64,000 nt of DNA, from the IMG/VR virus record IMGVR_UViG_3300045391_006539; one strand, given 5' to 3'. Position 1 is the first letter of the stretch; each line of letters starts with the position of its first letter. The notes under the pieces are model-generated. The model ran no database searches, was not told where the DNA came from, and saw only the letters and a list, made by a program, of their open reading frames with translations. A program made the translations under genes and the position numbers. Shown piece after piece: positions 9,293 to 64,000 of this stretch. The DNA comes from a virus. Lineage: Duplodnaviria; Caudoviricetes.

Positions 9293-9767
9293 AGACACCA
9301 GACCCGTAGACCGTGACATCTTGCGTCAGGCCATTGCTGCTTTGCGCGAGGTCAACGCCAATCTCGAGAGCGTGATGCTCCGTAACGACAAGGTCATCCG
9401 CCGGCAGAACTGGCTCACGGGGCTGTTCCTACTGTCGCTCGGCATGCTCGGTGGGCAGCTCTTCCTGGGCCTTTCTCAGCAGGCGCTGCAGGAGTCGGCC
9501 AAGACCCAGCTCGCCGCACAGGAGCAAGGGCGCATCGAGATGCAGCGCGCGCTCGAGGCGGCCAAGATTCAGGTGCGCGAGCTCGAGACGTCGATGAAGC
9601 AGCAGCTCCAGGCCGTGCCCACGGTGACGAGTGACAAGGCGGGGCGGCTCAGTCTCGAGGTACCACTCGACGACGCCACCAAACAGGCGGTGAGTGCGAC
9701 TCCCACACTCCCTCCCGAGAAGGTGGTGATACCCTTGAAGCCGTCACAGGCGAAGCTCTCGAACTGA
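9276..9767 (+). CDS. TM plus coiled-coil protein (possible spanin-like lysis accessory)
   Basis: TM WLTGLFLLSLGMLGGQLFLGL followed by a coiled-coil. Confidence 0.45.
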   Translation: MAAVDEDTRPVDRDILRQAIAALREVNANLESVMLRNDKVIRRQNWLTGLFLLSLGMLGGQLFLGLSQQALQESAKTQLAAQEQGRIEMQRALEAAKIQVRELETSMKQQLQAVPTVTSDKAGRLSLEVPLDDATKQAVSATPTLPPEKVVIPLKPSQAKLSN

Positions 9768-9772
9768 GGTCT

Positions 9773-10546
9773 ATGGACAAGCAGGCAAACCCGGTCGTCG
9801 CCGCCAAGCTCATCGCCGCCATGCTCGGCTCGGGCTTGATGATGGCCGACAGTGCCCATGTCCAGGAACTCCAGGAAGAAGCGGCGGTTCTCAACGAGAT
9901 GAGCCGCATGTACGAGGCGAGGAAGATGCAGCAGACCATCGACAGCCTGAGCACCCAGAAGTTCGCTTCGGCCGAGTGGCATGCCCTGCGCGCGGTGAAG
10001 GTGGCGGCCGCCGTCACGGCCGCCGGCGGGGACTTCGACAAGCTCGCGGCCCTGCTCGAGGCGGAGGGCATGGACAAGGAGGCGCTCGGCGCGCTCATCG
10101 GAGGTCTCGCCCGGCTCGGTGGGGCCGCTCTCAAAGGCCTCGGCGGGGGCGCCAAGGCGCTCGGCGCCGCCAAGCTCCCCTCACTCGGGGGCTCCGGCGT
10201 GGGCGCGTTCCAGAAGGCCTGGCAGGGCGCCGCGCCGGCAGCGCAGGCTACCCAGGGGTACCTGCAGCGCGCTGGCGGCTGGCTCCAGGGACACGGCGCC
10301 TCGCTCGCCGCCAAAGGTCAGGCCAGTGTTGCGGCCGCCGCGCCGGCAGCCGCTGCGAGCAAGCCGCTGCTCGGCATGGGAACCAAGGCCAAGCTCGTCG
10401 GCGCGGGTGCGCTCGCTGGTGCGGGCTACCTCGGATACAAGGGTCTGCAGGCGGGACGAGACTACATGCTGGCGCCGCCGCGGCACAGCATTTACGGCAC
10501 ACCCGTCGCGAACAACATCAATCAATACGGAGTGCCGCAGTACTAG
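9773..10546 (+). CDS. Glycine-zipper K-x-A putative virion protein
   Basis: DKQAN, QKFAS, VKVAA, DKEAL motifs; GAGALAGAGYLGY. Confidence 0.65.
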   Translation: MDKQANPVVAAKLIAAMLGSGLMMADSAHVQELQEEAAVLNEMSRMYEARKMQQTIDSLSTQKFASAEWHALRAVKVAAAVTAAGGDFDKLAALLEAEGMDKEALGALIGGLARLGGAALKGLGGGAKALGAAKLPSLGGSGVGAFQKAWQGAAPAAQATQGYLQRAGGWLQGHGASLAAKGQASVAAAAPAAAASKPLLGMGTKAKLVGAGALAGAGYLGYKGLQAGRDYMLAPPRHSIYGTPVANNINQYGVPQY

Positions 10547-21830: not shown

Positions 21831-22267
21831 GCCTCCAGGAGCGCTTCAGTGAACTCTGTGCCGCACTGCAGGCCAAGAGTGGCGCAACGGTAGTACCGGG
21901 TAGTGAGACCATCACCCCAACCCAGGTTCGTTTCAACGTCCGCGTCCAGCCTGGTAACGATGCCCGGCGTTGGCTCAAACTCACCAAGAACATCTTGATT
22001 CTGGCGCGTACGGCGCGTTGGACCACGGATATCTCTCGACAGTACTTCCTCGACCCTACGGACGAAGTCCGCTGGGGCTGGCGCCTCATCTTTCAGGGGC
22101 AGGAACTCGAGTCTTCCCTCGCTCTGCTCGCGCAGTCCGTGCGCAGTTACGCCATCCAGGCCTCACAGCAGCTCGAAGAAGTACCCCTGCATGGCAGCCC
22201 AAATCGTTCGAGGGGTGCCGGTCTCACGGGTACGGTACCCGTTGGTCCTTTCGCCACCCGAGGATGA
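21827..22267 (+). CDS. Hypothetical protein
   Basis: Coupled ORF. Confidence 0.6.
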   Translation: MSLQERFSELCAALQAKSGATVVPGSETITPTQVRFNVRVQPGNDARRWLKLTKNILILARTARWTTDISRQYFLDPTDEVRWGWRLIFQGQELESSLALLAQSVRSYAIQASQQLEEVPLHGSPNRSRGAGLTGTVPVGPFATRG

Positions 22268-46946: not shown

Positions 46947-47969
46947 ATGCCAAACGTAGTCCTCAGCGCCACGCCCATTGCGACGCGCGGCGAAATCATG
47001 CTCGTCGAGCTCCAAGCCGTGACCCAGGACGAGGACTGGGTCGGTCTCTACAGTCAACTGCAGTTCTTCCGCTCGACCCAGGGTCCCTCGGGGCCTTGGG
47101 AGGAGCTCACGGCGCCCACGTGGACGCGGCCGCGACTGCCCGCCGGCGCGGGGGATGCGCCGGTAGACCCCGTCACCGGCCCAGCTCTCTTCATCGTGAA
47201 TGCCGAGCTCGTGCTCGTGAACAACGGGCAGACCCGGACTATCACGTTCACGGGTTCGGACCCTCTCACCACGGCGCAAGCGGCAGCGCAGGTGGTGAGT
47301 CAGGGTGGCGGCCTCTTCGATGCCCATGTCGCCGAGAATGGTCAGTTCGTCGTCGAGGCCACCCTGCCTGGTCTACAGAGCCAGCTCATGGTTTTACCGA
47401 GTGATGGCTCCATCATTCTCGGCTTTTCCACGACCGAGCCGGGCAACACGGCCACTGGTCGTGACGTGCGCCTCGGACTCGTCGAGGGCACGACGACCTA
47501 CCCGCTCATCGACTACTTCGGAAGTCGGGACTACTACTACCGCACGCGCTACTTCGACCCGCTCACGGGCGCCCAGAGCGAGCCGAGCGCCGTCTTTCAG
47601 GTAGGCACCCCCTTACCACCCGAGGACATCGTCATCGGCTGGGTCTCCATGGTGGACGGACGGGGTGTCCCCATGTCGTATGAAGTTCGTGTCTACACGG
47701 AATCCAGTGGTGGACCAGTCGACGCGTTCGTGGTCGTGGGCAGCACCCAGGTTGCCCGCGGCGACGAGAACGGGCGCGCCGAGTTCCGCTTGCTGCGTGG
47801 GCAGCGCGTCAGCGTATCGATTCAGGGCACCAACCTCGTGCGCACGCTCACCGTTCCCATCGACCCGGACGTGACGAGCTTCAACCTACTCGGCAGTGAT
47901 GTCGGGCCCTTCGACGTCTATCGGGCTGCAGTCCCCGAGCTCATCACAGCCGAACGCCGCACGCTGTGA
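46947..47969 (+). CDS. Putative virion structural protein
   Basis: Beta-rich; TITFTGSDPLTTAQAAAQV resembles the sheath insertion repeats. Confidence 0.55.
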   Translation: MPNVVLSATPIATRGEIMLVELQAVTQDEDWVGLYSQLQFFRSTQGPSGPWEELTAPTWTRPRLPAGAGDAPVDPVTGPALFIVNAELVLVNNGQTRTITFTGSDPLTTAQAAAQVVSQGGGLFDAHVAENGQFVVEATLPGLQSQLMVLPSDGSIILGFSTTEPGNTATGRDVRLGLVEGTTTYPLIDYFGSRDYYYRTRYFDPLTGAQSEPSAVFQVGTPLPPEDIVIGWVSMVDGRGVPMSYEVRVYTESSGGPVDAFVVVGSTQVARGDENGRAEFRLLRGQRVSVSIQGTNLVRTLTVPIDPDVTSFNLLGSDVGPFDVYRAAVPELITAERRTL

Positions 47970-48274
47970 GCATCGACATCGACACGGTCCTGCGCGTCCT
48001 CGACGCATGTGACCGTGAGTTAGAGAAAGAACCTCTCATTAGCTTCGTAGTCCCCAAGCGAGGGGGCGGCACGGGACAAGTGTTTCTGAAATGGCGTCGG
48101 GGCTGGGGTCTCAAGGACTACATCAGGGACCCAGCTCTCACTGGCATCATCAGCTTGTACCAGGCTGCTCACTCGCGTATCGTTGACCATCGCAACATCA
48201 AGCGACGTCTGACGTACACGCCGAATCAGGGGGACGAGATTCGGTTCATCAGAACGAAACCATCTCGAGTGTGA
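47966..48274 (+). CDS. Hypothetical protein
   Basis: Coupled ORF. Confidence 0.5.
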   Translation: MSIDIDTVLRVLDACDRELEKEPLISFVVPKRGGGTGQVFLKWRRGWGLKDYIRDPALTGIISLYQAAHSRIVDHRNIKRRLTYTPNQGDEIRFIRTKPSRV

Positions 48275-48277
48275 CCT

Positions 48278-49150
48278 TTGGCAAATGAAGCCGTAGACGT
48301 GTTCGTGAAGGACCAGCTGGACCAATCGCTCTCGGGCGTCATCGTCCGCATCTTCAATCCCACGACGCACGTTCCGTACACGCAGCAGGAAACAGACACC
48401 AATGGACAAGCGAGTTTCCTGCTCGAACCAGGCAATTACGAGATGCGGTTCTATCGCTACCGCACCACGTTTTCCCAGCCCCAGTTCTTCGAGGTGGTCG
48501 CCGACCAGCTCAATCAGTTCGACGTCAGCGCCGAAGTTTTCATCCCTCCCATCTCGAACGATGCACGCCTCTGTCGCTGCTCGGGGCTCTTTCGAAACCC
48601 CGATGGGTCAGCGCAGGCGTATCTCGACATGAGCTTCTATCCCGACTTCGCACCCATCTTGCTCGAAGAGACGGGCGTCGTGCCGAGGCACGTGAACATC
48701 CGCACGAACGAAGATGGCTACGCCAGCATCGATTTGATTCGTGGTGGCTGCTACCGAGTGACGGTCGAGGGTCTCGACAACGAAGAGCGCTACGTGCGCG
48801 TGCCGCTGCTCGCGAGCACGAATCTACCCGACCTGCTCTTCCCCGTCGTCGAACGCATCGTCTTCGACCCCGCGGGGCCCTGGACCATCGCCGTCGATGC
48901 CGAGCTCGAGGTGACGCCCACGGTCTATGACAGCGCCGGCGCCATCCTCGCGGGCACGGGTCAGAACGACGTCGACTGGCGCTCGAGCGACCTCGACGTG
49001 CTCGGACTACAGGTCAAGCAGACCACGCTCGTCTTGCGCGGCATCGCGACGGGCTCGGCCGAGCTCCGCGCGGGGCGCCGTGACCTCTCCATCATCGTCA
49101 TCCCCTCCATCCCCATTGCCGGACAACCCATTGCAGTGACGGTACCGTGA
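48278..49150 (+). CDS. Ig-like/transthyretin-like virion protein
   Basis: LSGVIVRIF..ETDTNGQASFLLEPGNY repeat; C-terminal Big-2-like VDWRSSD. Confidence 0.55.
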   Translation: MANEAVDVFVKDQLDQSLSGVIVRIFNPTTHVPYTQQETDTNGQASFLLEPGNYEMRFYRYRTTFSQPQFFEVVADQLNQFDVSAEVFIPPISNDARLCRCSGLFRNPDGSAQAYLDMSFYPDFAPILLEETGVVPRHVNIRTNEDGYASIDLIRGGCYRVTVEGLDNEERYVRVPLLASTNLPDLLFPVVERIVFDPAGPWTIAVDAELEVTPTVYDSAGAILAGTGQNDVDWRSSDLDVLGLQVKQTTLVLRGIATGSAELRAGRRDLSIIVIPSIPIAGQPIAVTVP

Positions 49151-49968
49151 CAGACACCCACGCCCTGCTCACCCTCCAGGCCGCTCAGGTCGCCGCCATG
49201 GCGCTCCGAGCCATCTCCAGCATCCAGCCAATCCTCGGGCCGCCCAATGGCGAGGTGAGCGGGTTCCGCGAGGCCCTCACGGCCCTGCGCGCGCTCTACC
49301 AAGAGCCCGGGATACCGGTACCCAAGGCCCCGCGTCGCCTGCGCCGGCGACCCCAGGCCCAGCCCCGGGTGCACCTGCCCAAACGGCTCTCCGAGCGGCC
49401 CCCACCGCCCCCTCCCGAGCCCGTGGCGCTCGAGGTGGACGAGGAGAGCCCCTGGGACCCCGAGCCCCTCTACGAGGCCTCCCGGTGCCAGGCGTTCCTC
49501 ATGGAGGTCATCCGGCGCGCGGCCCACGACTATGTGCTGTACCGCCAGCACAAGCGCATGGACCTCAAGATGCTGGCCGAACAGGCCTTCACCTGGCTCT
49601 TCGAGGAGGAGCCTGGTCACCCGGCCTGGAAGCAGCGCGAGCGAGCGCTGTTCAAAGTGGTCGATGGGGTTTCGGGGGACGAGGTGGTCGAGGTGGGCAG
49701 TCGGCGGCTGACGAGCTTCCTGTCCATCTGTGAGGCATGCAACCTAGACCCTGGGGCAGTGCGCGACAGAGTCCGCGAGATGACTGTCGAATCCATCATG
49801 CGCACGGGTAGACACGTCGAGCGTCGCAAGCCGCGCGCCAACGCAGACGCGACCAGTATCGAGACACATGCCATCGTCGTAGACATCGACATGGACGCGC
49901 TCGATGCCGAGGCTCAGAGCGACTACTACGATTCGCGTGACTCCTATGGCATAGACCATTCGTGGTGA
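49147..49968 (+). CDS. Hypothetical protein (possible transcription regulator)
   Basis: VIRRAAHDY..AFTWLF..SFLSICEACNLDPGAVR. Confidence 0.55.
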   Translation: MTDTHALLTLQAAQVAAMALRAISSIQPILGPPNGEVSGFREALTALRALYQEPGIPVPKAPRRLRRRPQAQPRVHLPKRLSERPPPPPPEPVALEVDEESPWDPEPLYEASRCQAFLMEVIRRAAHDYVLYRQHKRMDLKMLAEQAFTWLFEEEPGHPAWKQRERALFKVVDGVSGDEVVEVGSRRLTSFLSICEACNLDPGAVRDRVREMTVESIMRTGRHVERRKPRANADATSIETHAIVVDIDMDALDAEAQSDYYDSRDSYGIDHSW

Positions 49969-49972
49969 CACT

Positions 49973-49998
49973 CAATTCTTCCCCGAACGCCGGGATAA
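49973..49998 (+). promoter_or_regulatory. Phage promoter-like motif
   Basis: CAATTC-N13-GGGATAA. Confidence 0.65.
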
Positions 49999-50039
49999 AA
50001 CGGGTGTAGGACCACAACCTGCATCAATGGGAGAACGTA

Positions 50040-50618
50040 ATGAGTGATGAACGGAGTGGGGAGAAGAAGCGCTGGCTCGTGCGGACTTGGGATGTCCCTA
50101 CGACCATGTCTGGAGTGAACAAGACTGTCGAGGCTGCAAACATCGAAGCGCAGCTCAACGAGCTCGCCGCCAATGACTACGACATCCATGCCGTCGACCT
50201 CGACCAGAAGCTCGTGGTCGGTCGCCTCGATGACGAAAAAGTACAGAGCCATGTCTTTGCAACGTTCGGGAGCAACGCGCCAGTGCAGCCCCAGCCCACC
50301 GAACACCCCTCAACGGACAGCTCTACAGAATTCGAGCTCATGGGGATGCACACGACTGAACTGCTCAACAATCTGAGTTCGGTCGTTGCTGCCATCCGCT
50401 ATCTACCCGAGAGTGTCGTCAACGACCGCATCACCTTCCTCGCCAGGGAGTTCGGTCGTGGCAAACCACATGATGAAGTCGTCAAGAGCCTCGACGACAT
50501 CAAGAGATGTCATAGCACTCATCTCTCGCACTGCTCGGCGGGCTGCCCTCGAGACAAGGTCTACGCGATGGTGACCAAGAGTCTCCAGGACCATCTCGCA
50601 GCGAACCCTTTGAGTTGA
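50040..50618 (+). CDS. Hypothetical protein
   Basis: SD GGAG; promoter motif upstream. Confidence 0.6.
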   Translation: MSDERSGEKKRWLVRTWDVPTTMSGVNKTVEAANIEAQLNELAANDYDIHAVDLDQKLVVGRLDDEKVQSHVFATFGSNAPVQPQPTEHPSTDSSTEFELMGMHTTELLNNLSSVVAAIRYLPESVVNDRITFLAREFGRGKPHDEVVKSLDDIKRCHSTHLSHCSAGCPRDKVYAMVTKSLQDHLAANPLS

Positions 50619-50621
50619 GGG

Positions 50622-50657
50622 GCTAAAGAAAGCGCGCCCCATGTAGGGGGCGCGCTT
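50622..50657 (-). terminator. Intrinsic terminator between convergent genes
   Basis: AAGCGCGCCCC-N6-GGGGCGCGCTT; TCTTTAGC tail on the minus strand. Confidence 0.75.
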
Positions 50658-50676
50658 CCTGCGTTCTGCTTAGCAT

Positions 50677-51306
50677 TCAGTTCGAGTAGCAGAGCGCACG
50701 GGCGAGAATCTCGACGCCGCCCGGATTGGTTTTGCTGTAGAAGCAGGACCAGGTGTTGAACTCGACATCCGGGAAGCTGCCCGTGATGGCCACCGTCGTG
50801 CCACCCGAGGTGATGACGCAGCCGCCACCGATGAGCGTGTCACCCTCGTCGCAGGGCGAGAGTACTTGACCAGACATCGCACTCACACTGCCACGGCTGT
50901 CAGCTTGGTAGATGTGGCTCGAGTCGAACCCGCCTGCTACCCCTGCGGGGCCTTGTAGACCACGTGGGCCTTGCGCGCCCTGAGCGCCCGCGGGACCCTG
51001 CGGTCCTTGAGCACCTGCCGAACCCGCGGGACCTGCCGGACCACGCTCGCCAGCGGGGCCCTGCTCGCCTTGCGCACCCGGCTCGCCCTTGGAGCCTCGA
51101 GGTCCCTCGGGACCAGCAGCACCGGGTTCGCCTTGTGGACCCTGGGGGCCCGGTTCTGCGGAACACTCACACGAGGCCGGCTGCTCCTCGGTAGTCTCGT
51201 CAGCTTTCGCGTCTGGCGCGAAGTCGACTTTCATGCCGCCGCAGGCGACGAAGGCGATGGTGATGATGGACGTGATGATGGACTTCGAAACGTTGGACTT
51301 CTTCAT
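50677..51306 (-). CDS. Collagen-like lipoprotein
   Basis: [13 protein letters not shown] lipobox; about 24 Gly-X-Y triplets; Cys-rich C-terminal domain. Confidence 0.75.
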
Positions 51307-51332
51307 GGTTGTTGTTTTCCCTCTCGATATAG

Positions 51333-51358
51333 TTATGCCCGAAATCCGATAGAATTTG
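51333..51358 (-). promoter_or_regulatory. Phage promoter-like motif
   Basis: CAAATT-N13-GGCATAA. Confidence 0.65.
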
Positions 51359-51363
51359 CGTCC

Positions 51364-51516
51364 ATGGACACCGTTGCAGTCATCATCACCATCCTGCTCT
51401 GGCTCGCTGTTGCTCTCATCATGAATAAGGCCTGGGTCTCGATAGCCTGCATGGTCATGATTGCTCTCACGTGTATCGCGTACGTCGTCCCTCTCCTCCG
51501 AAAGCGAAAAGAATGA
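51364..51516 (+). CDS. Small 2-TM membrane protein
   Basis: [20 protein letters not shown]... Confidence 0.5.
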
Positions 51517-52160
51517 GTAACTCACCCCTCTCCGAGGCCCTCTATCGCAAGAACATCTTCACACCGCGCGTGCTCATCGATGTCGATGACGTCTGCGCGC
51601 AGTTCCGTGCTGCGTACGTCGCTCTCGCCAACCAGTACTACCAAGAATCAGCCGTCAATCCCAAGTTCTGGTCTGTCGAAGACACCCATTCGGCCTGGGA
51701 CGTGGAATCGGCGATGGGCCTCACTCCAGCCGAGCAGGCAGCCATCTGGCAGCAGGTCAATACGAGCTCGTTTGCTGCCCAGCTCGAACCTGTGACTGGG
51801 TCTGTGCAGGCCATCAAGCGCATTGCCAAGCGCTACGAGGTCGGCTTCGTCACCAAGCCCTTGAAGAGTAGCCCCACATGGACGTACGACAGGAAGAAGT
51901 GGCTCAAGAAGCACTTCGGACAGCTCGGTGAGAACGTCGTGAGCACGGCCCTCAAGGGTTGGGTCGATGGGGACTATCTCATCGAGGACCGATTGCCCAT
52001 GGCGCAGCAGTGGGTCGAGCAACGCCTCTTACGTGGGCATCCACGCATCACGCCCATCGGCATCATCTACGCCTGGCCCTACAATGAACTACCCGAGGTC
52101 TACCACAACCTCGTGCGCTTCTCGGACTGGGAAAGCATCTTGGACTATCTCGGATGTTGA
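51513..52160 (+). CDS. 5'(3')-deoxyribonucleotidase (NT5C, HAD family)
   Basis: [26 protein letters not shown]. Confidence 0.85.
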
Positions 52161-52528
52161 GCATCACAGAGCCTGCACCTGCCCCAGTCTGGTTGAGAAT
52201 CGTCGTGGCCTTGTTCATCGCAAGTATCATGCTCGCGCTGGTGGTCTACGTCCTCTGGGTCGAACTCGGAGTGAGGCGCGAGAAGTTCGCAGGCATTGCA
52301 CGTATCCGAGAAGATACACGACTCCTGGGAATATACGGCGAGTGGTTCAACTCTCTATCTGCGGGTGACCTACCACCCGATTACTTCAAGGCCATCCTTC
52401 ACGAGAGCGATATCATCCTAGACCGAGCCAAGAAAGACCAGCCCATCTATGACCTCATCCAAATCAGGCTCCGGGGAACCCCCTACGAGCGAAAACTGCG
52501 AGAAGGACAGTCAGACAAACGTCGATGA
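52154..52528 (+). CDS. Membrane protein
   Basis: N-terminal TM segment. Confidence 0.5.
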   Translation: MLSITEPAPAPVWLRIVVALFIASIMLALVVYVLWVELGVRREKFAGIARIREDTRLLGIYGEWFNSLSAGDLPPDYFKAILHESDIILDRAKKDQPIYDLIQIRLRGTPYERKLREGQSDKRR

Positions 52529-52850
52529 GCCCAAGCCCAGCGAGGTGAAGACTGAGGAAGTAGTCATGGCCAAGGTCCTCGACATTCGCGACCGGCTACC
52601 CCCACTCGTTTTAGGGGATAACCCTTGTGGACGAGTCGCAACCAAACTGCTCGCCGTACTCACCAACGACGAGAACGAACCCTACGTGCACATCGCTGCA
52701 TTGATTGTCACGAGCCATACGCTCCAGCGTCTGCTCAAAGAGGGCTATGGCACGAGTGAAGAAGAGATGCACTACATCCGTGAGCGCGCACACGAGATGG
52801 CCGAGAACATGCGCGTCGAACTCACCTTCAAGAAAGGACCCATGAAGTGA
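52449..52850 (+). CDS. Hypothetical protein (likely start 52566)
   Basis: ORF coupled to the next gene. Confidence 0.5.
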   Translation: MTSSKSGSGEPPTSENCEKDSQTNVDEPKPSEVKTEEVVMAKVLDIRDRLPPLVLGDNPCGRVATKLLAVLTNDENEPYVHIAALIVTSHTLQRLLKEGYGTSEEEMHYIRERAHEMAENMRVELTFKKGPMK

Positions 52851-53053
52851 GACTGAACCGCGTTGGAGAGGTCTATGGCCGACTCCGTGTCTTGAGGGCG
52901 ATGGGCGTCCTGGTCACCCATGACGGACGTACACAGTCATTGTCACAATGGTCGAAGGAACTCGGGATAGGAACGAGCACCCTATCGAGTCGTTACCACC
53001 GAGGTTTACCAGCGAAGGAGATACTCAGCCGTGTCGGTCTCAGACGTCGATGA
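52847..53053 (+). pseudogene. Internally deleted HNH homing-endonuclease remnant
   Basis: N-terminal GEVYGRLRVL joined directly to the C-terminal DNA-binding part THDGRTQSLSQWSKELGI..TLSSRY..G; no HNH core. Confidence 0.6.
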
Positions 53054-54176
53054 ATGGAATGGTGTTGGTCCGCTCCCTACTCTCTATGGACGTGCCGCAG
53101 GAGGTGCCACTCAAGAATGGGTGTGCTGGGTTGAAGGCTCAGACGTATGTGTACGCTGGGGGCAGCGTGGTGGGCAGATGCAAACCGCCCGATTCACATG
53201 CGTTGCCAAGAATGCGGGTAGGGTGAATGCCACAACAGCTGAGCAGCAAGCTGTGAAAGAGGCTCGCTCGAAGTGGCGCAAAATGGTCAAGGTCAAATAC
53301 AACGAGAACATCGAGATGGCAGGGGTGACCGAGCGCATCAAGCCCATGCTCGCAGAGACCTTCGCAGAACACGAGCACAAGCTGAAATACCCGGTCACCG
53401 TCCAACCCAAGCTCAATGGCCATCGTTGCCTCGCGTATCGAAAGAACGGCGAGGTGTTTCTACAGTCACGCAAGGGTGACCAGATTCGTTTGCCTCACGT
53501 CATCAACGACCTCCAGAACGTGCTCACTGGGTCTGGTCCCGTCCTAGATGGAGAGCTGTACATCCATGGCATGAGCCTCCAGAACATTGGCGCGCTCATC
53601 CGCCGTCCGAGACCCGAATCGCTCGCACTCGTCTACTGTGTCTTCGATGTACTTTTCACCTCCGGGGATACAGGTTCGTGGCTGGACCGATTGACGTGGC
53701 TCGAGAGCTTCTTCCAAACGTATAGCCACCACTATCCGCTCGGAAGAGCTCTCTGGAAGGTTCCAGGTATCGACGCCCACTCCAAGCAGGAGGTCATCGA
53801 CATCAAAAAGATGTTCATGAACGAGGGGTATGAGGGCGCCATCGTACGGGCCCATGAAGGCGAGTATCGAATGGGCCATCGCAGTGCAGAACTCCTGAAG
53901 CTCAAGGACTGGAAAGATGGTGAGTATCCCATCGTCGGCTTCACCGTGGGTCGCGGCAAGTTCGAGAACGCGCCCATCTTCACGTGCAGAACCCCAGAAG
54001 GCAAGGACTTCGAGGTGACGCCCATGGGCACAGCCCCGGAACGCTATCAACTCCTGCTCGAAGCTCCGGGGCTCATTGGCAAATTGCTGACTGTGAAATA
54101 TGCCGAGCTCACCGAAGAGGGGAAACCCTCTCATGCCCGTGGCGTGGCAATTCGTGACGAGAGTGACCTCTCGTGA
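53031..54176 (+). CDS. lig: ATP-dependent DNA ligase
   Basis: PMLA, VQPKLNGHRC (motif I), LDGELY, VFD, YEGAIVR, LLKLKD, TVKYAELT. Confidence 0.92.
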   Translation: MSVSDVDEWNGVGPLPTLYGRAAGGATQEWVCWVEGSDVCVRWGQRGGQMQTARFTCVAKNAGRVNATTAEQQAVKEARSKWRKMVKVKYNENIEMAGVTERIKPMLAETFAEHEHKLKYPVTVQPKLNGHRCLAYRKNGEVFLQSRKGDQIRLPHVINDLQNVLTGSGPVLDGELYIHGMSLQNIGALIRRPRPESLALVYCVFDVLFTSGDTGSWLDRLTWLESFFQTYSHHYPLGRALWKVPGIDAHSKQEVIDIKKMFMNEGYEGAIVRAHEGEYRMGHRSAELLKLKDWKDGEYPIVGFTVGRGKFENAPIFTCRTPEGKDFEVTPMGTAPERYQLLLEAPGLIGKLLTVKYAELTEEGKPSHARGVAIRDESDLS

Positions 54177-54778
54177 ACCCCGCAACACAGACTGGACACA
54201 TCAGCGACTGGAAGGTCACTTATCAGAACCTGACCCGTTGGCAGCGATTCAAGGCTCATGCCTGGGGCACACTGGCCTCTCACACAGAAGCCCAGTGGTT
54301 GAAAGCCAATGGTTGGACGTGCGTGGGTCCCAACCAATGGCTCTTGCCACTGTGGCATCCGCACAAGGAGAGAGCCTCATGCCCCAGTCGTGGGCACTCG
54401 CGCTTCGACCACTCCTCAGTCGATGGGGAGCGTCGGTCACGCAAGATAGCCGAACCCTACGACCAGAACCACGCAGCAAACTCTCAGCGGAAGTACTTCC
54501 GTGCTGAACACATTTGCCCCGCCACGGGGCAAATCTCATCCACGGCTCGCTACTCGAGATTCGTGTACATCTCGCATTGGTTACACGGTGTGGGCCTCGC
54601 ATGTGCAGCCTATGGAGGAGGGGCTTACGGGCGTGCAGGGTCTCTCGGGTGGCGACCCGGTCTGTTTTTCCTAGCGGCCGCCCTGTGCTTGTGTTTATCT
54701 TGGCTCAGTTTCTTCAAGTCCCGACGTGAGTTCGAACTCGACCTCGTGGAACGAAGACTCGGAAGGCAAGGTTCATGA
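54173..54778 (+). CDS. Hypothetical membrane protein
   Basis: Two C-terminal hydrophobic segments. Confidence 0.5.
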   Translation: MNPATQTGHISDWKVTYQNLTRWQRFKAHAWGTLASHTEAQWLKANGWTCVGPNQWLLPLWHPHKERASCPSRGHSRFDHSSVDGERRSRKIAEPYDQNHAANSQRKYFRAEHICPATGQISSTARYSRFVYISHWLHGVGLACAAYGGGAYGRAGSLGWRPGLFFLAAALCLCLSWLSFFKSRREFELDLVERRLGRQGS

Positions 54779-54813
54779 CATGAGCGCATTGGTGGCCATC
54801 GAATTGGTGGTAG

Positions 54814-55206
54814 ATGCAAAACGAGTGGAGCAAGAGAACGCGCTATTGGTCACGGTGGGCACCCATCGTGAGAACGACTCCGAGCGGCAAGACAATGTTC
54901 GTCTGCCTCATCTGCGGCGAGTCGACTCCAGCACCGAGAAACGATTGTCCGGAGTGGGAAGAACCACACGGAGAGCGATTCGACCGTCTCGACCCGAGAC
55001 TCGCTGATAGGTTCGAGAGCGACTTTCACAACCTCAATTCATGCAGGAGTGTCGAACTACTCATCAATGTAGCCATCGACCGACACGCAGATAGATTCAA
55101 AGAGGACCTGGTCGAAGACCATCTTCGACCAGAATCCGAGAAGTATTGTGGGCTCTGCCATGGCTGGGGCTGTCAATCGTGCCTCGGCAAAGGCACGCGG
55201 TGGTGA
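54814..55206 (+). CDS. Zn-finger protein
   Basis: CLICG and CGLCHGWGCQSCLGKG. Confidence 0.55.
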   Translation: MQNEWSKRTRYWSRWAPIVRTTPSGKTMFVCLICGESTPAPRNDCPEWEEPHGERFDRLDPRLADRFESDFHNLNSCRSVELLINVAIDRHADRFKEDLVEDHLRPESEKYCGLCHGWGCQSCLGKGTRW

Positions 55207-55541
55207 TTGACATGACACTCATCCTCGACAGGCTCGAACACATCCTCACATCAAAGACGGTCGATGAGCTCGACCTCGTCGAGGAGACACTGCACGCAGG
55301 GCTTCGTGGTGAGGTCTTGCAAGAGCTAGTCCTGACACCATATGGACAGCGCGTGCGCACGTGGTATCGCTTTGCAGCCATGTACAAGCGCATCTATGGA
55401 CCAGGCTGGAAAGAAGTCGTCTCTGCTCGACTTCATGCAGGTCATCTGGAGTACTGCTCTCGACATGCAAAGAGGGGTTGCATGGAACTTGCACTCGGTG
55501 GACTTTGCGACCAGTGTATCCTTCAGCAAGGATACGTCTGA
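55146..55541 (+). CDS. Hypothetical protein (start probably about 55200)
   Basis: Cys-rich C-terminus. Confidence 0.5.
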   Translation: MWALPWLGLSIVPRQRHAVVIDMTLILDRLEHILTSKTVDELDLVEETLHAGLRGEVLQELVLTPYGQRVRTWYRFAAMYKRIYGPGWKEVVSARLHAGHLEYCSRHAKRGCMELALGGLCDQCILQQGYV

Positions 55542-55576
55542 CGATGACACTGGTGTAGAATGGGTTCACTGCAGAC

Positions 55577-55927
55577 ATGCAACAGTACATCACCTCCGCG
55601 GAGGCGTGTCAGTTACTCGACCGAGTCCTTCAAACCGTCCAATCGCTCAACGCAGCGTTTTCTGCGCTTTTCCCACCTCCCGCTACCATCCCAGAAGTGA
55701 GAGCCCTCGAGGCCACCGTGCCAGAGCCATCGGTGGTACCAGCGCCTGAGCCCGTAGCACCGGTACTGACCATCAAACTGAGCGACTTGGTTCGCGCCAG
55801 CGACAACGTGCAAAGACGCAACAAGCAACACAAGCGTCATCAGCGGCAGAACCACCAGCCCCGACACGAGCGCAGAGTGCGCAACGTGGAGGTGGTCTAC
55901 CGCAGAGCGTTCCGAATGGTTTCATGA
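55577..55927 (+). CDS. Hypothetical protein
   Basis: TAGAAT upstream. Confidence 0.5.
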   Translation: MQQYITSAEACQLLDRVLQTVQSLNAAFSALFPPPATIPEVRALEATVPEPSVVPAPEPVAPVLTIKLSDLVRASDNVQRRNKQHKRHQRQNHQPRHERRVRNVEVVYRRAFRMVS

Positions 55928-55934
55928 GGCGAGA

Positions 55935-56255
55935 TTGATTCGATATGTAGTCACTCGGACGTTCAACGCGACCGAGTGGGCCATGGCCGAAGATACAGGC
56001 CAATCAAACCAAGACATCTACATGAGTGAGGACGGGCGCAGCATGCGACCCGTCCTTCGCTTTTGGGCCCCTTCCTGGATGGATGCCAAGCCCATCTACG
56101 ACTGGGCCTGCCGGCGCCTCGACTGGCGCTACGAGAAAGGGGTGAAGAGCTGGTCGGAGGTTAGAATCCTCAGCGGACTCGACCAGGAGACACTCAGTGC
56201 CCAGCTTCCTTTGGCCTTTCCGAAAGAAGAGAAACCCAGACCACGAAACGTGTGA
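55935..56255 (+). CDS. Hypothetical protein
   Basis: ORF with SD. Confidence 0.45.
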   Translation: MIRYVVTRTFNATEWAMAEDTGQSNQDIYMSEDGRSMRPVLRFWAPSWMDAKPIYDWACRRLDWRYEKGVKSWSEVRILSGLDQETLSAQLPLAFPKEEKPRPRNV

Positions 56256-56377
56256 CTGCACCGAGCTCACCCAAGTCGAGGGTGACCGGCGCAAGTATTG
56301 GCCCAAGCTCAAGGGCAGACCCACGGGACATCACCCTGACTGTGAGCACTATGTTCCGCCACCCGTGGAGCGGAAAG

Positions 56378-56557
56378 ATGAGTGATGATGAAGAGACTGC
56401 GGAGAACGAGTGGCAATGGCTCGTTGAATTCTTCTGTCTACCACCCGGCACCCGAGTGACACGAGAGATTGTCTATGGAAACGTGATGGAGATTCATGTC
56501 GAACTACCGCCGAGCGGACTCGACCACGTCGAGTTCGAGCTCGACTTGACCATATGA
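56378..56557 (+). CDS. Small protein directly upstream of the Zn-finger array
   Basis: ATG56378 after GGAG; contains CLPPGTRV. Confidence 0.5.
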   Translation: MSDDEETAENEWQWLVEFFCLPPGTRVTREIVYGNVMEIHVELPPSGLDHVEFELDLTI

Positions 56558-56847
56558 CCGTCGAAGACGCGGTCGAAGAACTCCTTCAAGGGGCCACCAT
56601 CCCGTGTGGTCCCTGCAAGGGCTCGGGCATTGCTGGGATGAGCGCCACGGGCCCTGACCCATGCGGTGACTGCCATGGAGCAGGTCACTTCGTGCGTGAT
56701 AGATGGCTCAAAGCACGCGAGCTCCTCGGCAGCAGCACCCCAGTCCCTTACGGCAGACCCTGGTCCGAGTATCAGCAAGAGGAGTTCGAGTATCAGCGGG
56801 AGGAGTTCGAGCGCTGGGAGCGTACTGACAGGACATGTGGTCTATGA
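56554..56847 (+). CDS. Zn-finger array paralog 1
   Basis: MTVEDAVEELLQG..CGPCKGSG..CGDCHGAG..WLKARELLG..P. Confidence 0.75.
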   Translation: MTVEDAVEELLQGATIPCGPCKGSGIAGMSATGPDPCGDCHGAGHFVRDRWLKARELLGSSTPVPYGRPWSEYQQEEFEYQREEFERWERTDRTCGL

Positions 56848-57212
56848 CGGTCGAAGAAGCCACGGAAGAGATACTCCAAGGCGCGTTCGAGCCATGTGAG
56901 CATTGTAAGAGCGACCCAGGAGGCATGCGCATCCACGACGAAATCAGCATCTGCTACTACTGCAAGGGTCACGCCCAGGTCTATCGCAAGAAGTACCTCC
57001 TCGCATGCAGAACACTCGGCAAGGAACCAATACCCATCCCCAAGAGTCCCTTCCAGTTACAGGAGGAGGAGGTGTGGACACACATGTTCGAGAAGGCGGG
57101 CATCCTTCAAGAGGACATGAAGAAGCAGAGGTTCTCATCGACTACGCAGCTCTCGAAAAACTGGTCTACGCCGAACAGCAGAAGCGTGTCCAAAGGATGG
57201 AAAGGAAACTGA
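56844..57212 (+). CDS. Zn-finger array paralog 2
   Basis: MTVEEATEEILQG..CEHC..CYYCKG..YLLACRTLGKEP. Confidence 0.75.
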   Translation: MTVEEATEEILQGAFEPCEHCKSDPGGMRIHDEISICYYCKGHAQVYRKKYLLACRTLGKEPIPIPKSPFQLQEEEVWTHMFEKAGILQEDMKKQRFSSTTQLSKNWSTPNSRSVSKGWKGN

Positions 57213-57316
57213 GACTGCGCTGGCGGGTGGAGGAATTCAAAGGGGACACGGTCACAGACCCGCCTCCCTTGCCGAGCGTCATTCATTTGACGGCCACACC
57301 CGTGCAACTCAGCACT

Positions 57317-57748
57317 ATGAGCCGCGAGGACGCGGTCGAGATAGTCCTCTCCAAGCCGCTCTACTCGACATGTCCGTACTGTGAGCGAGGGCGCTATCGA
57401 GGTGCCATTCGTAATCCGATGGAGTGCGTCACGTGCAATGGCTGGGCGCTCGTTCCCAACCCCGAATACGTCAACGCCTGCAAAGTGCTCGGCAAAGAGC
57501 CACCTCCTCCCATGCAGATGTCGAGGCGGATGTACAAGAACATCTCCTTCGGACAGGCTTACGGCATGAGTGCCAGTCGTATGAGTTCACCCCAGCCCAA
57601 CCTACAGAACCCCCACTCATCCAGGGTTGATTGGGTCAAGGTCATGATGAGCCTTCCTGCACCGACCGTAGCGAGCTACTCTGAAACGGATGCCACGCTC
57701 ACGGCCTCCGCCATTACCGGCTTCCTATCCAACACTGCAAAGCGTTGA
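57317..57748 (+). CDS. Zn-finger array paralog 3 (frame open upstream to 57005)
   Basis: MSREDAVEIVL..CPYC..CVTCNG..YVNACKVLGKEP; Pol A-like tail. Confidence 0.75.
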   Translation: MSREDAVEIVLSKPLYSTCPYCERGRYRGAIRNPMECVTCNGWALVPNPEYVNACKVLGKEPPPPMQMSRRMYKNISFGQAYGMSASRMSSPQPNLQNPHSSRVDWVKVMMSLPAPTVASYSETDATLTASAITGFLSNTAKR

Positions 57749-57992
57749 AGAAACAGTCGAAGCCATCGAGTATGTGAAGTGCGAGACCTGCCACGGGTCT
57801 AGGCGCATAACGCGGGGAGTAGCCTGCGAAAACTGTGATGGGTGGGGGTATCACGTCTACCCCACCGAGTCTGCGGAGCGCTTCGCACTGAACCTGCGAG
57901 CGCTCCTCAGCACATCCGTTCTGTATCTATCTAGCCCCACAAGGCGTTTACGTCTACCCTCGAGGTCTCCCTGGAGGCTGCGTGGAACGTGA
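57690..57992 (+). CDS. Zn-finger array paralog 4 (divergent)
   Basis: EETVEAI..CETCHGS..CENCDGWG. Confidence 0.55.
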   Translation: MPRSRPPPLPASYPTLQSVEETVEAIEYVKCETCHGSRRITRGVACENCDGWGYHVYPTESAERFALNLRALLSTSVLYLSSPTRRLRLPSRSPWRLRGT

Positions 57993-58383
57993 AGAGGCTG
58001 TCGAGATAGTTCTGAAAGAGCCCGCTTGGCTCTCATGTGACGAGTGTGATGGTGATGGGATGCTCATCTCCACGCGTGAATCCTGCGAGTACTGTGAAGA
58101 TGGGTTCGTCTACAACCCCGATTTCCAGCTCGCATGCGACGTACTCGGGCGGGCCATGCCACCCAGACCCGTTCGCTCGTTGCTGGGACCAACAGGTCCC
58201 ATAGGCCCAACCGGTCCGAGTGGACCACCAGGCATATCCGTCAACTTTCAGGCCTGGAACGAGATACTCACAGCAGAACAAATAAAGGCGGTCTATGACA
58301 ACGACTTCATCGCGCGAATCGTGGATGCAGAACCTGGACCTCTTGGACCCACCGGCGGCTGTGGAGAGGATTCTCCAGGGTAA
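57982..58383 (+). CDS. Zn-finger array paralog 5
   Basis: EREEAVEIVL..CDECDGDG..CEYC..FQLACDVLGRAMP. Confidence 0.75.
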   Translation: MEREEAVEIVLKEPAWLSCDECDGDGMLISTRESCEYCEDGFVYNPDFQLACDVLGRAMPPRPVRSLLGPTGPIGPTGPSGPPGISVNFQAWNEILTAEQIKAVYDNDFIARIVDAEPGPLGPTGGCGEDSPG

Positions 58384-58762
58384 TGCATGGACCAAGTGCC
58401 ATGCCTGTTCTGCAGGCAACGTCATCACCATCGACGAAGATATGGTTCCCGAGTTCGAACCCTGCAAAGAGTGTAAGGGCTCGGGTTTGATACTCGACGA
58501 GAGCTACGCCCAAGCCTGCATGACGCTTGGCAAGCCCATCCCTGAAGAACCACACACCTCTTGGAACTCGGCCTTCGACCTCAGTGCCGAGGCTGCTAGT
58601 GCAGTGATAGCTACGTGGTACAAGGCCCAGTCGGGTGTGCTGGATGCAACCGTGAGTGCAGACCCAGCCAACCCTACGATGGCCAACGTCGAGCTCGTGC
58701 TCGAACAGCCGCTGAAGTACATCTCGTGTAATTTCTTCATCAAGGACCCCGATGGAGCGTGA
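58325..58762 (+). CDS. Zn-finger array paralog 6
   Basis: AAVERILQGNAWTKCHAC..CKECKGSG..YAQACMTLGKP. Confidence 0.75.
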   Translation: MQNLDLLDPPAAVERILQGNAWTKCHACSAGNVITIDEDMVPEFEPCKECKGSGLILDESYAQACMTLGKPIPEEPHTSWNSAFDLSAEAASAVIATWYKAQSGVLDATVSADPANPTMANVELVLEQPLKYISCNFFIKDPDGA

Positions 58763-59051
58763 GCAGGCTGTCGAGGTCATCCTTCAGGGCCAGGCTTGGG
58801 ACCCGTGCCGCAGGTGCAAGGGTCTAGCCAAGAATGGCATGTTTGCCTGCAAGCCCTGTCACGAGACGGGTTATACCAAGAACGATGAATATCGAGAGGC
58901 ATGCGTCGTCATCGGTAAGGAGGACTATCCCGAGATACCCATGACTGCCGGAGAGAAGATTGCTATTGCTCTCGGCAAGGGCATTCTCGAAGAAATGCGG
59001 CGCCCGAGCCTGGCACTTACGGCACTCCCACCGAAGATTGTGGACGAATGA
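58752..59051 (+). CDS. Zn-finger array paralog 7
   Basis: MEREQAVEVILQGQAWDPCRRC..CKPC..YREACVVIGK. Confidence 0.75.
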   Translation: MEREQAVEVILQGQAWDPCRRCKGLAKNGMFACKPCHETGYTKNDEYREACVVIGKEDYPEIPMTAGEKIAIALGKGILEEMRRPSLALTALPPKIVDE

Positions 59052-59257
59052 AGATAAACCTCATCAATGTGGCCACACTCCTCGTGCTTTGCCTCGCCTC
59101 GCTCGGGGTGGGGTGGCTGCTCGAACTGGTGGCCAGTTCGACGACAGACGACTGCGTAATAGTCATCTCCATCGTCACGGCACTCGCGCTCTTCTCACTC
59201 ATCAGCGCCCTTTTCATTCAAACCATGCAGCGATGGAAGAACAGAGACCCTCGATGA
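59048..59257 (+). CDS. Small 2-TM membrane protein inside the array
   Basis: Two hydrophobic helices. Confidence 0.55.
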   Translation: MKINLINVATLLVLCLASLGVGWLLELVASSTTDDCVIVISIVTALALFSLISALFIQTMQRWKNRDPR

Positions 59258-59454
59258 GCGGACTGAACTGGCCCGATGACTTCCTCGATTGCATCAGCTA
59301 CGGACCTTCCGAGGGTGAGGAAGGCTACATTGGGGACTACTTCCAACCTCTCGAATACCCTTGCAACTGTTCGACCTGCACACGCGAGTGGCGAGAGGCG
59401 ATGGGACTAATCGATGAAGACGACTCCGGCGATGAGCCTGGAGCAAGCGGCTGA
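59254..59454 (+). CDS. Small Cys-containing protein inside the array
   Basis: MSGLNWPDDFLDC..PCNCSTC. Confidence 0.5.
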   Translation: MSGLNWPDDFLDCISYGPSEGEEGYIGDYFQPLEYPCNCSTCTREWREAMGLIDEDDSGDEPGASG

Positions 59455-59740
59455 GGCCATCCTTCAGGGTAACCCTTGGCTCGAATGCTCCATCTGCCAT
59501 GACGGCAGCCAATCGCGCTGGTTTGGTGTACGAGGCGAGGACCTCAAGTGCCCCGCCTGTGCGGGAACTGGCTATTGTCCACGCAAGGAGTACGCAGAAG
59601 CATGTCGGACCCTCAATCGCGAGATGCCTCCTCGTCCAGTCACGAGGAGCGGCAAGAAGACCCTGACCGCGCGCGAGAACAAGATGACACTGCGTGGCCT
59701 CTTCAAGCGACTACCGAGAACCCGTGGCCCGAAGACATGA
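59414..59740 (+). CDS. Zn-finger array paralog 8
   Basis: MSLEQAAEAILQGNPWLECSIC..CPACAGTG..YAEACRTLN. Confidence 0.75.
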   Translation: MKTTPAMSLEQAAEAILQGNPWLECSICHDGSQSRWFGVRGEDLKCPACAGTGYCPRKEYAEACRTLNREMPPRPVTRSGKKTLTARENKMTLRGLFKRLPRTRGPKT

Positions 59741-60009
59741 CCCGAGAGGAGGCCGTGGAGGTCATCCTCAAGGGCCATCCTTGGTGCGCGTGCTGGCTTT
59801 GTCTCGGCAGCGGTCGGGGCACTGACGGCAAGATACACACGTGCACGCTCTGTAAGGGCGAGAAGAGCATCGTGCGCGCGCCCTACGCCAAGGCGTGTGA
59901 GCTCCTTGGCAGACCACTGCCCAAACTGCCACCCAAGACCATCGGCTTCGAGGTCAGCGAGGAGCTGGTCATCTCCATTTTCCACCCTAGAGCCATACCC
60001 AAGCTCTGA
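59737..60009 (+). CDS. Zn-finger array paralog 9
   Basis: MTREEAVEVILKGHPWCACWLCLGSG..CTLCKG..YAKACELLGRP. Confidence 0.75.
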   Translation: MTREEAVEVILKGHPWCACWLCLGSGRGTDGKIHTCTLCKGEKSIVRAPYAKACELLGRPLPKLPPKTIGFEVSEELVISIFHPRAIPKL

Positions 60010-60018
60010 AAGCAACTG

Positions 60019-60219
60019 ATGACACCTGAAGAAGCCGTAGAAATCATTTTGCTCGGGGAGGCCTGGTTGTTCTGTGAAGCATGTGGCGGATGCGCCTTGC
60101 CACTTTGTGCTCGATGTAGGGACTATGGTGGCGCCATCCTCGTACCCTCCTATGCTGAAGCATGTCGCGTTTTGAACAAAGCACTCCCCATCCATCGGTA
60201 TGACCATGGCCCTGACTAA
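60019..60219 (+). CDS. Zn-finger array paralog 10 (almost no tail)
   Basis: MTPEEAVEIILLGEAWLFCEAC..CARC..YAEACRVLNK. Confidence 0.75.
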   Translation: MTPEEAVEIILLGEAWLFCEACGGCALPLCARCRDYGGAILVPSYAEACRVLNKALPIHRYDHGPD

Positions 60220-60940
60220 GGAAGAGGCAGTAGAGGTCATCCTCCAAGGGAAGGCATGGCTCAAGTGCCCAGCCTGCGACGAGGATGGTCTACCCCACCC
60301 CGAGCCCAAGACCGTGAATGGCATCGCGGGCAGCGTCCTTACCATGCGGCGGTGTTCGCTCTGTGAGTACGGCTATACCCTCCGCCCCGAGTACCGGCAG
60401 GCGTGTGAGGCTCTCGGTAGACCCATACCCCAACGAGACAACCCCTTCTCCTTCGAGCTCCCAACCACACCAGGCAGGACCCTTCAGGCGGGAGAGGCGG
60501 TGCAGATGGTCTATCTCAACGGGCGCTGGGTCGCCATGGCAGCCGGCGGCGCTGGAGGTGGAGAAGTCCCAGACTCACTGAAGAAGCACCTCCCGTCCCA
60601 TCCCCATCAGGGCGACTACACGACTGTCGTCACGGCTCCTCCAGGACAGGGAGGGTCAGGCCCGAGCGTGCAGGTCATGATGCCCCGGGGTGAGTTCGCG
60701 GTGCAGATAGACGAGCGCATCGAGACCCTGCGCTTCGACCCGCGAGGCACGGTCACCATCACGGGCTTCCAAGCGCCCGTAGACCCCAACGCGCCGGTGC
60801 TACCGTCGGTCCATCTGGTGAAGACCGGAGGAGGCGAATTAGTCCTGGGTCGAGAAACGCGTGATGAACCCTCGGATGACCACCTCATGTCCCAGTCACT
60901 ACCCTCGTGGGCACTGACTCACGAGGACCCGGAGAAGTAG
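60200..60940 (+). CDS. Zn-finger array paralog 11 (long tail)
   Basis: TKEEAVEVILQGKAWLKCPAC..CSLC..YRQACEALGRPIP. Confidence 0.75.
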   Translation: MTMALTKEEAVEVILQGKAWLKCPACDEDGLPHPEPKTVNGIAGSVLTMRRCSLCEYGYTLRPEYRQACEALGRPIPQRDNPFSFELPTTPGRTLQAGEAVQMVYLNGRWVAMAAGGAGGGEVPDSLKKHLPSHPHQGDYTTVVTAPPGQGGSGPSVQVMMPRGEFAVQIDERIETLRFDPRGTVTITGFQAPVDPNAPVLPSVHLVKTGGGELVLGRETRDEPSDDHLMSQSLPSWALTHEDPEK

Positions 60941-60987
60941 AGTCGAAGACCTCGTGTTCTATGCTCGTTCATCGAGAAACGAGCTGA

Positions 60988-64000
<3,013 letters not shown>

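Follow-up and report, generated by a model that had tools for sequence, protein, structure and literature searches.

A zinc-ribbon mini-protein from a tandem phage gene array carries motif B-like and pre-motif-A-like segments of family-A DNA polymerase in reversed order

The DNA analysed here (the window) is a stretch of 64,000 nucleotides from a Caudoviricetes virus record, IMGVR_UViG_3300045391_006539, and its GC content is 61%. About eleven small genes, mostly overlapping, stand in tandem from 56554 to 60940. They have a common N-terminal module of ~60 residues, and each has a different tail. The module is composed of a helix (E/D)EAVE(I/V)IL, a CxxC knuckle, a loop, a second CxxC knuckle, a helix PEYxxACxVLG and a proline-rich linker, and the tails take up the space between modules and run into the gene that follows. 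A small Cys/His-rich gene (56197-56385; …CDCxELTQV(E/D)G…GHHP(D/E)CE…) lies directly upstream of the array and is kept at positions 9708-9884 of another metagenomic contig, L031.

Two other tails were looked at individually. That of paralog 5 (57982-58383) has collagen-like GPLGPTG triplets, similar to those of a collagen-repeat fibre gene starting at 60997 (Pfam Collagen, E = 8e-95), a likeness of low complexity only. In the tail of paralog 6 (58295-58762), EPHTSWNSAF after the linker is loosely like GRIHTSFNQ of family-A DNA polymerase (Pol A), with 22 bits and an E-value of 0.25 against one Pol A. A previous reading of this DNA made from the sequence alone (the sequence-only reading) had also suggested that other tails copy sheath or capsid segments. 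This found no support in the one case tested, the paralog 6 tail against the C-terminus of the phage's sheath protein, as the match of CNFFIKD with CNFIRLT was not significant by shuffling (P = 0.055 and 0.34).

Paralog 3, the third gene of the array, is the ORF at 57317-57748 on the plus strand, encoding a protein of 143 amino acids (P0001). In public assemblies the gene is called at 57197-57748 (+) with a product of 183 amino acids (P0002), which has a 40-residue N-terminal extension, the module and the tail. An identical 183-residue product is called on a JGI contig and on a Logan contig. Thus the residues quoted in the sequence-only reading, which lie exactly at 57524-57703 in the frame of the 57317-57748 ORF, belong to a protein present in two further assemblies. 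The JGI contig is 99.9% identical to positions 47197-64000 of the window and runs 3.7 kb past its last base (L001:16787-20552), and the record runs ~11 kb further still, so the end of the window is an assembly end and not a genome end. Contigs matching the stretch were identical or nearly so, with two differences in a 235-base riverine contig, and gave no polymorphism; among the sequencing runs listed for it there was no RNA data set. The array region had no match in the phage collection searched, and in IMG/VR neither paralog 3 nor the conserved gene next to the array had a relative. A 40-mer from the window start had no exact match in metagenome contigs, extension upstream from contig to contig ended with a 33-kb contig, short of the replication module and any polA of this phage, and word-based homologue searches returned the protein itself only.

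All features of paralog 3 are on the plus strand. The zinc-ribbon module occupies 57317-57496 (residues 1-60 of P0001) and contains the helix EDAVEIVL, CPYC, a loop, CVTC and the helix PEYVNACKVLG. It is followed by the proline-rich linker EPPPPMQM (57497-57520), where most paralogs have LG(K/R)xxPxxP. The tail begins with a look-alike of Pol A motif B, the O-helix (SRRMYKNISFGQAYGMSAS, 57521-57577), then comes RMSS (57578-57589), which we propose as a junction, and then PQPNLQNP (57590-57613), which matches the remainder of the signature preceding motif A in Pol A (TGRLSSxxPNLQNIP; pre-A in the following). The last 44 residues (57614-57745) include the segment MMSLPAPTVASYSETDATLT (57644-57703), which had been claimed to be ExoIII-like. 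From ~57134 to 57700 the reading frame of paralog 3 has a GC3 of 0.70-0.76, a level that the module shares, so that by this measure the tail, too, is coding-like in the frame.

Searched exhaustively with phmmer, a set of 1.84 billion representatives yielded 24 proteins (clusters) at E-values up to 0.001, with lengths of 64-232 aa, all of them matching through the module. When 41 family members were compared with Pfam, DnaJ_CXXCXGXG was matched by 13 (best E = 1.3e-5), Anti-TRAP by 9 (best E = 3.4e-5), DUF5351 by 8 and BSD2_CRD by 2. The four cysteines of the two CxxC knuckles (C19, C22, C37 and C40) are invariant or nearly so across the 41 members. On paralog 3 itself the Anti-TRAP profile scored 13.8 bits against a cut-off of 32. 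The AF2 model gave the module pLDDT values of 73-98 by blocks, most 10-residue blocks being above 90 and the knuckle loop at 73-77. Anti-TRAP was the top Foldseek match, a weak one (E = 1.2, TM = 0.43 by target), VIA gave similarly weak scores for Anti-TRAP (Z = 2.2) and BSD2 (Z = 2.1), and the fold searches returned no Pol A match. On these profile matches the module belongs with the DnaJ-type zinc fingers, with a predicted zinc site. Two homologues, P0003 (183 aa) and P0006 (232 aa), have two complete zinc-ribbon modules in one protein, which is consistent with fusion of neighbouring paralogs.

The sequence-only reading had claimed three Pol A resemblances in the tail of paralog 3, to motif B, to the pre-A signature and to an ExoIII motif; our analysis bore out the first two, and the third is treated below. 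The segment RRMYKNISFGQAYG fits the pattern R-x3-K-x3-[FY]G-x2-YG and is the sole such site in the six frames of the window, with 0.0008 expected. All four spaced residues of motif B are present, together with FG and YG. Likewise, RMSSPQPNLQN is the sole match in the window to R[LIMF]S[STM]-x(1,2)-PN[LIVM]Q[NQ], with ~0.00002 expected. PSSMs built from ~13 non-redundant Pol A sequences were applied to the window in all six frames. That for motif B scored 21.8 bits in the tail (next best in the window, 10.8 bits) and that for pre-A 17.9 bits (next best, 12.7 bits). When 20 Pol A proteins were searched against the window with tblastn, the five best matches all fell inside the paralog 3 tail.

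The best Pfam family for P0001 was DNA_pol_A (PF00476), the family against which the sequence-only reading had proposed to check the tail, with a gapless match of residues 56-90 to profile positions 193-227 (E = 0.014). The score of this match, 14.8 bits, lies below the gathering cut-off of 34.3 bits, as does that of the best family member (P0004, 23.4 bits). In a phmmer search of PDB with paralog 3, Pol I accounted for 22 of the 24 matches, at an E-value level of 0.05, and Taq polymerase has 13 of 24 residues in common with paralog 3, including YGMSAHRLS against YGMSASRMS. AF2 run on a single sequence was uninformative; run on the 41-sequence family alignment, it predicted that the motif B segment (residues 66-81) is helical, with pLDDT of ~78-93 and low confidence beyond.

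Chance resemblance is hardly credible as an account of these motifs. Taken singly, the database E-values are weak (Pfam, 0.014; PDB, 0.05; phage database, 1), but two canonical patterns, with expectations of 8e-4 and 2.5e-5 per window, stand in one frame at a distance of 18 residues, and both recur in homologues on other contigs. No source of the paralog 3 tail, and no polA-like source, was found elsewhere in the 64-kb window. On the minus strand at 21883-21924, WVGVMVSLPGTTVA shares 10 of 14 residues with WVKVMMSLPAPTVA of the tail (E = 0.034 in a tblastn search within the window), a likeness that is probably due to chance.

In Pol A the motifs come in the order pre-A, A, B, C. In paralog 3, motif B stands before pre-A and directly abuts it, the reverse of the polymerase order, as the sequence-only reading had described and the PSSM scans confirmed. 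Its further argument, that a simply truncated polymerase pseudogene cannot give such a tail, was upheld by the pattern matches, the PSSMs and a profile of the Pol A stretch preceding TGRLSS (dGRIHxxFxQxGT). These results bear on a very improbable alternative, that the tail is a colinear Pol A fragment running from a GRIHxxFNQ stretch via TGRLSS-PNLQN to motif A, in which the look of motif B is coincidental. In BLAST, tail residues 6-52 and 23-74 do align colinearly, with 38-42% identity, to two Pol A proteins from phages. However, the profile of the preceding stretch scored below zero throughout the tail, at best -6.9, against +21.8 for motif B, all four spaced residues of motif B are there with FG and YG, motif A scored -0.1 bits, and extension past PNLQN added almost no score.

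The catalytic motifs of Pol A were not found in paralog 3. For motif A (DYSQIELR, with the catalytic Asp), SYSETDAT scored -0.1 bits and VLIDYAALEKL, further upstream, 3.7 bits; neither is among the six best motif A scores of the window, which run from 9.7 to 6.3 bits. For motif C (VHDE, with the catalytic Asp/Glu), there is no HDE in paralog 3. Pol A is recognised by pre-A, A, B and C within a domain of ~400 residues, and here B precedes pre-A in a tail of 84 residues. Paralog 3 cannot be a polymerase, because the tail is 84 residues long, motifs A and C are absent and the scores are below the Pfam cut-off.

Strings of the form (V/I)HDE(L/I/C)(I/S), resembling Pol A motif C (QVHDELV), are found in the loop between the zinc knuckles of four other members, namely paralog 2 (56835-57212, at residues ~30-40), P0004, P0013 and P0015. 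Against a null maximum of 12.6 bits, the motif C score was 20.2 bits for LINTRIHDEIISES of P0015, 10.1 bits for P0004 and 2.2 bits for P0013.

The ExoIII claim, which concerned YSETDATLT in the last part of the tail, was not substantiated. Residues 95-143 had no Pfam match of any kind at E-values up to 10, and hence none to PF01612, the comparison that had been proposed. With a 23-residue ExoIII PSSM the site was marginally the top one in the window (11.0 vs 10.5 bits), and with a 16-residue block it was unranked; one viral Pol A of ~20 shares 11 of 20 residues with the stretch. Two other readings were considered. One, which was dropped, saw motif A in YSETDATLT, in line with PNLQN and at a distance like that in short-spacer Pol A proteins, and it scored -0.1 bits and was not supported by an anchored BLOSUM comparison. 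The other, a continuation of the fingers past helix O1, came from one gapped alignment that added 0.4 bits to motif B alone (31.2 vs 30.8). We leave the last 44 residues unassigned. They have three weak and mutually exclusive Pol A readings (ExoIII, the region of motif A, and the stretch after helix O1), none of the searches found a relative of them, and their AF2 pLDDT values are 52-71.

A motif-B-like string right after the module and linker is also carried by homologues of paralog 3, here called B-type: RTMAKNIGFGLHYGMSPEKLSSQF in P0004, RRMRMKNASLAMNYGMAPAKLSQDL in P0013, RALQKNILFGVTYG in P0015, RRVFKNLKLAEAYG in P0017 and RRAVSKSLNLGLAYGTGPAKL in P0020, and a sixth case is L034:2704-3099. 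The six scored 13.7-33.4 bits with the motif B PSSM, against a null maximum of 10.8 bits. R70, K74, Y82 and G83 do not vary in the alignment of six proteins (paralog 3, P0004, P0013, P0015, P0017 and P0020). Of the seven other contigs described below, five were reached via B-type members, which had been retrieved by a query that itself carries a B-type tail; ascertainment has therefore inflated both how often B-type tails are seen and how constant these four residues look. For the same reason a count of arrays with a B-type member (6 of 6) was rejected as circular, since the arrays had been fetched through B-type proteins. The "KN" in motif B was likewise dropped as a family-specific marker, because a viral Pol A clade has KN too.

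P0004 alone matches PF00476 with an E-value of 3.5e-5, over 40 residues (86-125 on profile positions 203-242), and it is 51% identical to one viral Pol A over 41 aa, through helices O and O1 and beyond. The six-protein profile gave Pol I for all of its top 24 PDB matches (best E = 0.009), the alignment starting at ACkVLG of the module. In hhalign the B-type subfamily matched a Pol A alignment over 41 columns (E = 1.5e-4), and three family members matched DNA-polymerase families of PHROGs. No family member attains the Pfam gathering score, and the motif matches are short. In the protein atlas P0004 was nearest to short clusters annotated as Pol A, at 0.77-0.78, which is under the level that counts. 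We take the B-type tail to reproduce a segment of the Pol A fingers, probably comprising the end of helix N, a loop, helix O (motif B) and helix O1, and to retain the four residues (Arg, Lys, Tyr and Gly) with which real polymerases line the dNTP site. A search of IMG/VR with the degenerate DNA pattern for KNxxFGxxYGM found Pol A genes and no zinc-ribbon mini-protein. On the IMG/VR contig 3300048998_000119 (L087), a 155-aa ORF has VAKNMAFGLSYGMG with neither a zinc ribbon nor other Pol A context, and could be a piece of Pol A in a different phage.

Tandem arrays of the family are present on seven other metagenomic contigs (L029, L030, L031, L033, L034, L035 and L036). L031 (89 kb; ENA ERZ27298651, k119_236480) is syntenic with the window, with NT5C, an ATP-dependent ligase, a conserved 199-aa gene, small Cys-rich genes, the array and LamG/collagen fibre genes. 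The first array gene on L031 encodes P0013, the positional orthologue of paralog 3. The alignment with P0013 covers residues 11-131 of the 183-aa product and takes in its N-terminal extension, its module and its motif B, the two proteins being no less alike in motif B than in the module. P0013 stops ten residues after KLSQ and is without the pre-A part, the 52 residues after RMSS being extra in paralog 3. Since P0013 carries motif B at the same position, the motif B helix is an inherited feature of the paralog 3 gene.

Pre-A tails are found on separate paralogs of other arrays, and form a second tail type with the motif TGR(L/M)SSxxPN(L/I/V)QN. In L030:1935-2291 the tail has ...EPRTGRMSSSQPNIQNLRPGIVAD... 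(32.9 bits; Pfam profile positions 117-131, E = 0.065), and L036:308-616 ends in ...HWGSRTPNVQNIPSRR (23.3 bits). Their signatures, TGRMSSSQPNIQNL and GSRTPNVQNIPSRR respectively, are near-perfect for the Pol A stretch before motif A. L036 was reached via P0005, a member without a Pol A-like tail, so its pre-A instance is not an artefact of the search; none of its nine paralogs is B-type, in an array cut at the contig end. On L030 a B-type paralog is followed by the pre-A paralog, two genes apart. Motif B and pre-A look-alikes on the mini-proteins of related phages thus appear to be a conserved feature.

Further tail types are kept between contigs, as in the pairs L035:860-1234 and L036:2500-2874, P0016 and P0019, and P0011 and L036:308-616 (e.g. 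...GQW...LGLP...EEPESSPFR), and it follows that not all tails are fast-decaying spacers. This bears on the idea that the tail past motif B, or even the whole tail, is a functionless translated spacer in which the pre-A string is a decaying remnant, an idea that we hold to be distinctly unlikely. It would suit the last 44 residues, with their want of relatives and low AF2 confidence, and the position of the array tails, which span the space from module to module and extend into the following gene. It does not suit the coding-like GC3 through the tail, the conservation of motif B relative to the module between paralog 3 and P0013, or the recurrence of several tail types between phages, for example L035:860-1234 and L036:2500-2874.

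We think it rather probable that paralog 3 belongs to a zinc-ribbon mini-protein family in which it joins two Pol A-like tail types at a shared (K/R)(L/M)SS. The family consists of rare phage mini-proteins of about 65-230 aa, built on a four-cysteine zinc ribbon of the DnaJ/Anti-TRAP type and encoded in tandem arrays. After YG, B-type tails have xxx(K/R)LS(S/Q), in register with Pol A helix O1 (EKLSS in P0004, HRLSQ in Taq). Pre-A tails start with TG-R-(M/L)-S-S (GRMSS in L030), and RMSS of paralog 3 fits both tail types. The most likely cause would be that, at the RMSS overlap, a B-type paralog recombined with a pre-A paralog lying downstream of it, by deletion or unequal crossover. A fusion at these four shared residues would place motif B directly before pre-A, the order then deriving from the order of genes in the array and not from that in Pol A. 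We infer this fusion event, with RMSS as the recombination joint, from the overlap at the protein level; a DNA-level joint or a parental pair was not seen in this phage.

The sequence-only reading had explained the tail by piecewise capture of the most conserved segments of a polymerase gene. It was correct that genuine Pol A-type motifs stand out of order, but capture in this gene is not the best account of them, because the B-type helix is already in homologues, pre-A is on separate paralogs, and the junction falls on the shared (K/R)(L/M)SS. Direct capture would mean that two or three polA pieces, from this or a co-infecting phage, were inserted serially by microhomology or template-switching, and that only their conserved parts are still recognisable. 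We consider this unlikely, though it would account for motifs that are not colinear, for a short shared stretch at the junction, for an ExoIII-like third block that is marginally the top one in the window, and for the finding that, among Pol A proteins, a single viral clade with KNxNFG and SSSTPNLQN(I/L)PSR comes nearest to both tail types. Against it, P0013 and five other homologues already have a B-type tail at the same position, pre-A tails occur separately in other arrays, no polA-like source lies within the window, and the ExoIII block is not significant. As the nearest Pol A proteins are of one viral clade, it is possible that tails were repeatedly captured from the phages' own polA.

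Under the fusion that we favour, a function of the tail could be of the following kind. By analogy with Anti-TRAP and BSD2, zinc-finger proteins that act through binding other proteins, the tail might be a displayed peptide which mimics Pol A active-site elements or competes for a partner of them. As a working model, offered with low confidence, the scaffold would present the Pol A-like helix to a putative partner that normally contacts such elements; in paralog 3 the PNLQN loop would be presented as well. A wider and quite doubtful proposal is that the arrays are a panel of zinc-ribbon scaffolds, each showing a short copy of a conserved element of an essential phage protein, as decoys or competitors. 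The displayed elements would then be the Pol A O-helix, the PNLQN loop and perhaps the VHDE hairpin in some homologues, the target might be a host defence sensor or a factor of a rival phage, and paralog 3 would be a decoy with two epitopes.

We found no description of copies of polymerase active-site motifs on a small unrelated scaffold in the searchable literature or in current annotation. If the copies are under selection, they would point to an interaction that reads Pol A motifs, whether by a regulator, a chaperone, a defence sensor or a competitor's weapon, and the family would be a compact handle on such a partner. If they are recombination relics only, the array would be a clear case of tail shuffling between tandem paralogs via a four-residue overlap. 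In either case, small phage ORFs whose match to PF00476 is at motif level should not receive an annotation as polymerase fragments.

Like Anti-TRAP (PF15777; PDB 2bx9 and 3ld0) and BSD2 (PDB 6ekb), the members of this family are small proteins with two CxxC(xGxG) knuckles around one zinc site, predicted in the present family, and a C-terminal helix after them. Unlike them, the family has an N-terminal helix of its own, EEAVEIIL, and variable tails, and the fold matches are weak (Foldseek E ~1, VIA Z 2.1-2.2). To our knowledge, neither tandem arrays nor polymerase-like tails have been described for Anti-TRAP or BSD2.

The tail of paralog 3 is like the Pol A fingers (PF00476; helix O, or motif B, with R754-K758-F762-Y766 in Klenow) in the pattern and spacing of motif B, which runs into YGMSxxxLS as in Taq, and in the spacing from the preceding A-x-V-[LF]-G, and it has the PNLQN of TGRLSSxDPNLQNIP. 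It differs from Pol A in having 84 residues against a domain of ~400, in the absence of motifs A and C, in the reversed order, in scores below the Pfam cut-off and in its fusion to a zinc ribbon. Pol A sequence outside a full-length gene is known from split or truncated phage Pol A genes, such as the separate exo and pol genes of T7-like phages and the CCPols (PMC10201439), a paper in which the word "zinc" is absent. Split Pol A genes and CCPols keep whole, colinear and functional domains, via frameshift, whereas paralog 3 has motif segments of 20 residues on another scaffold.
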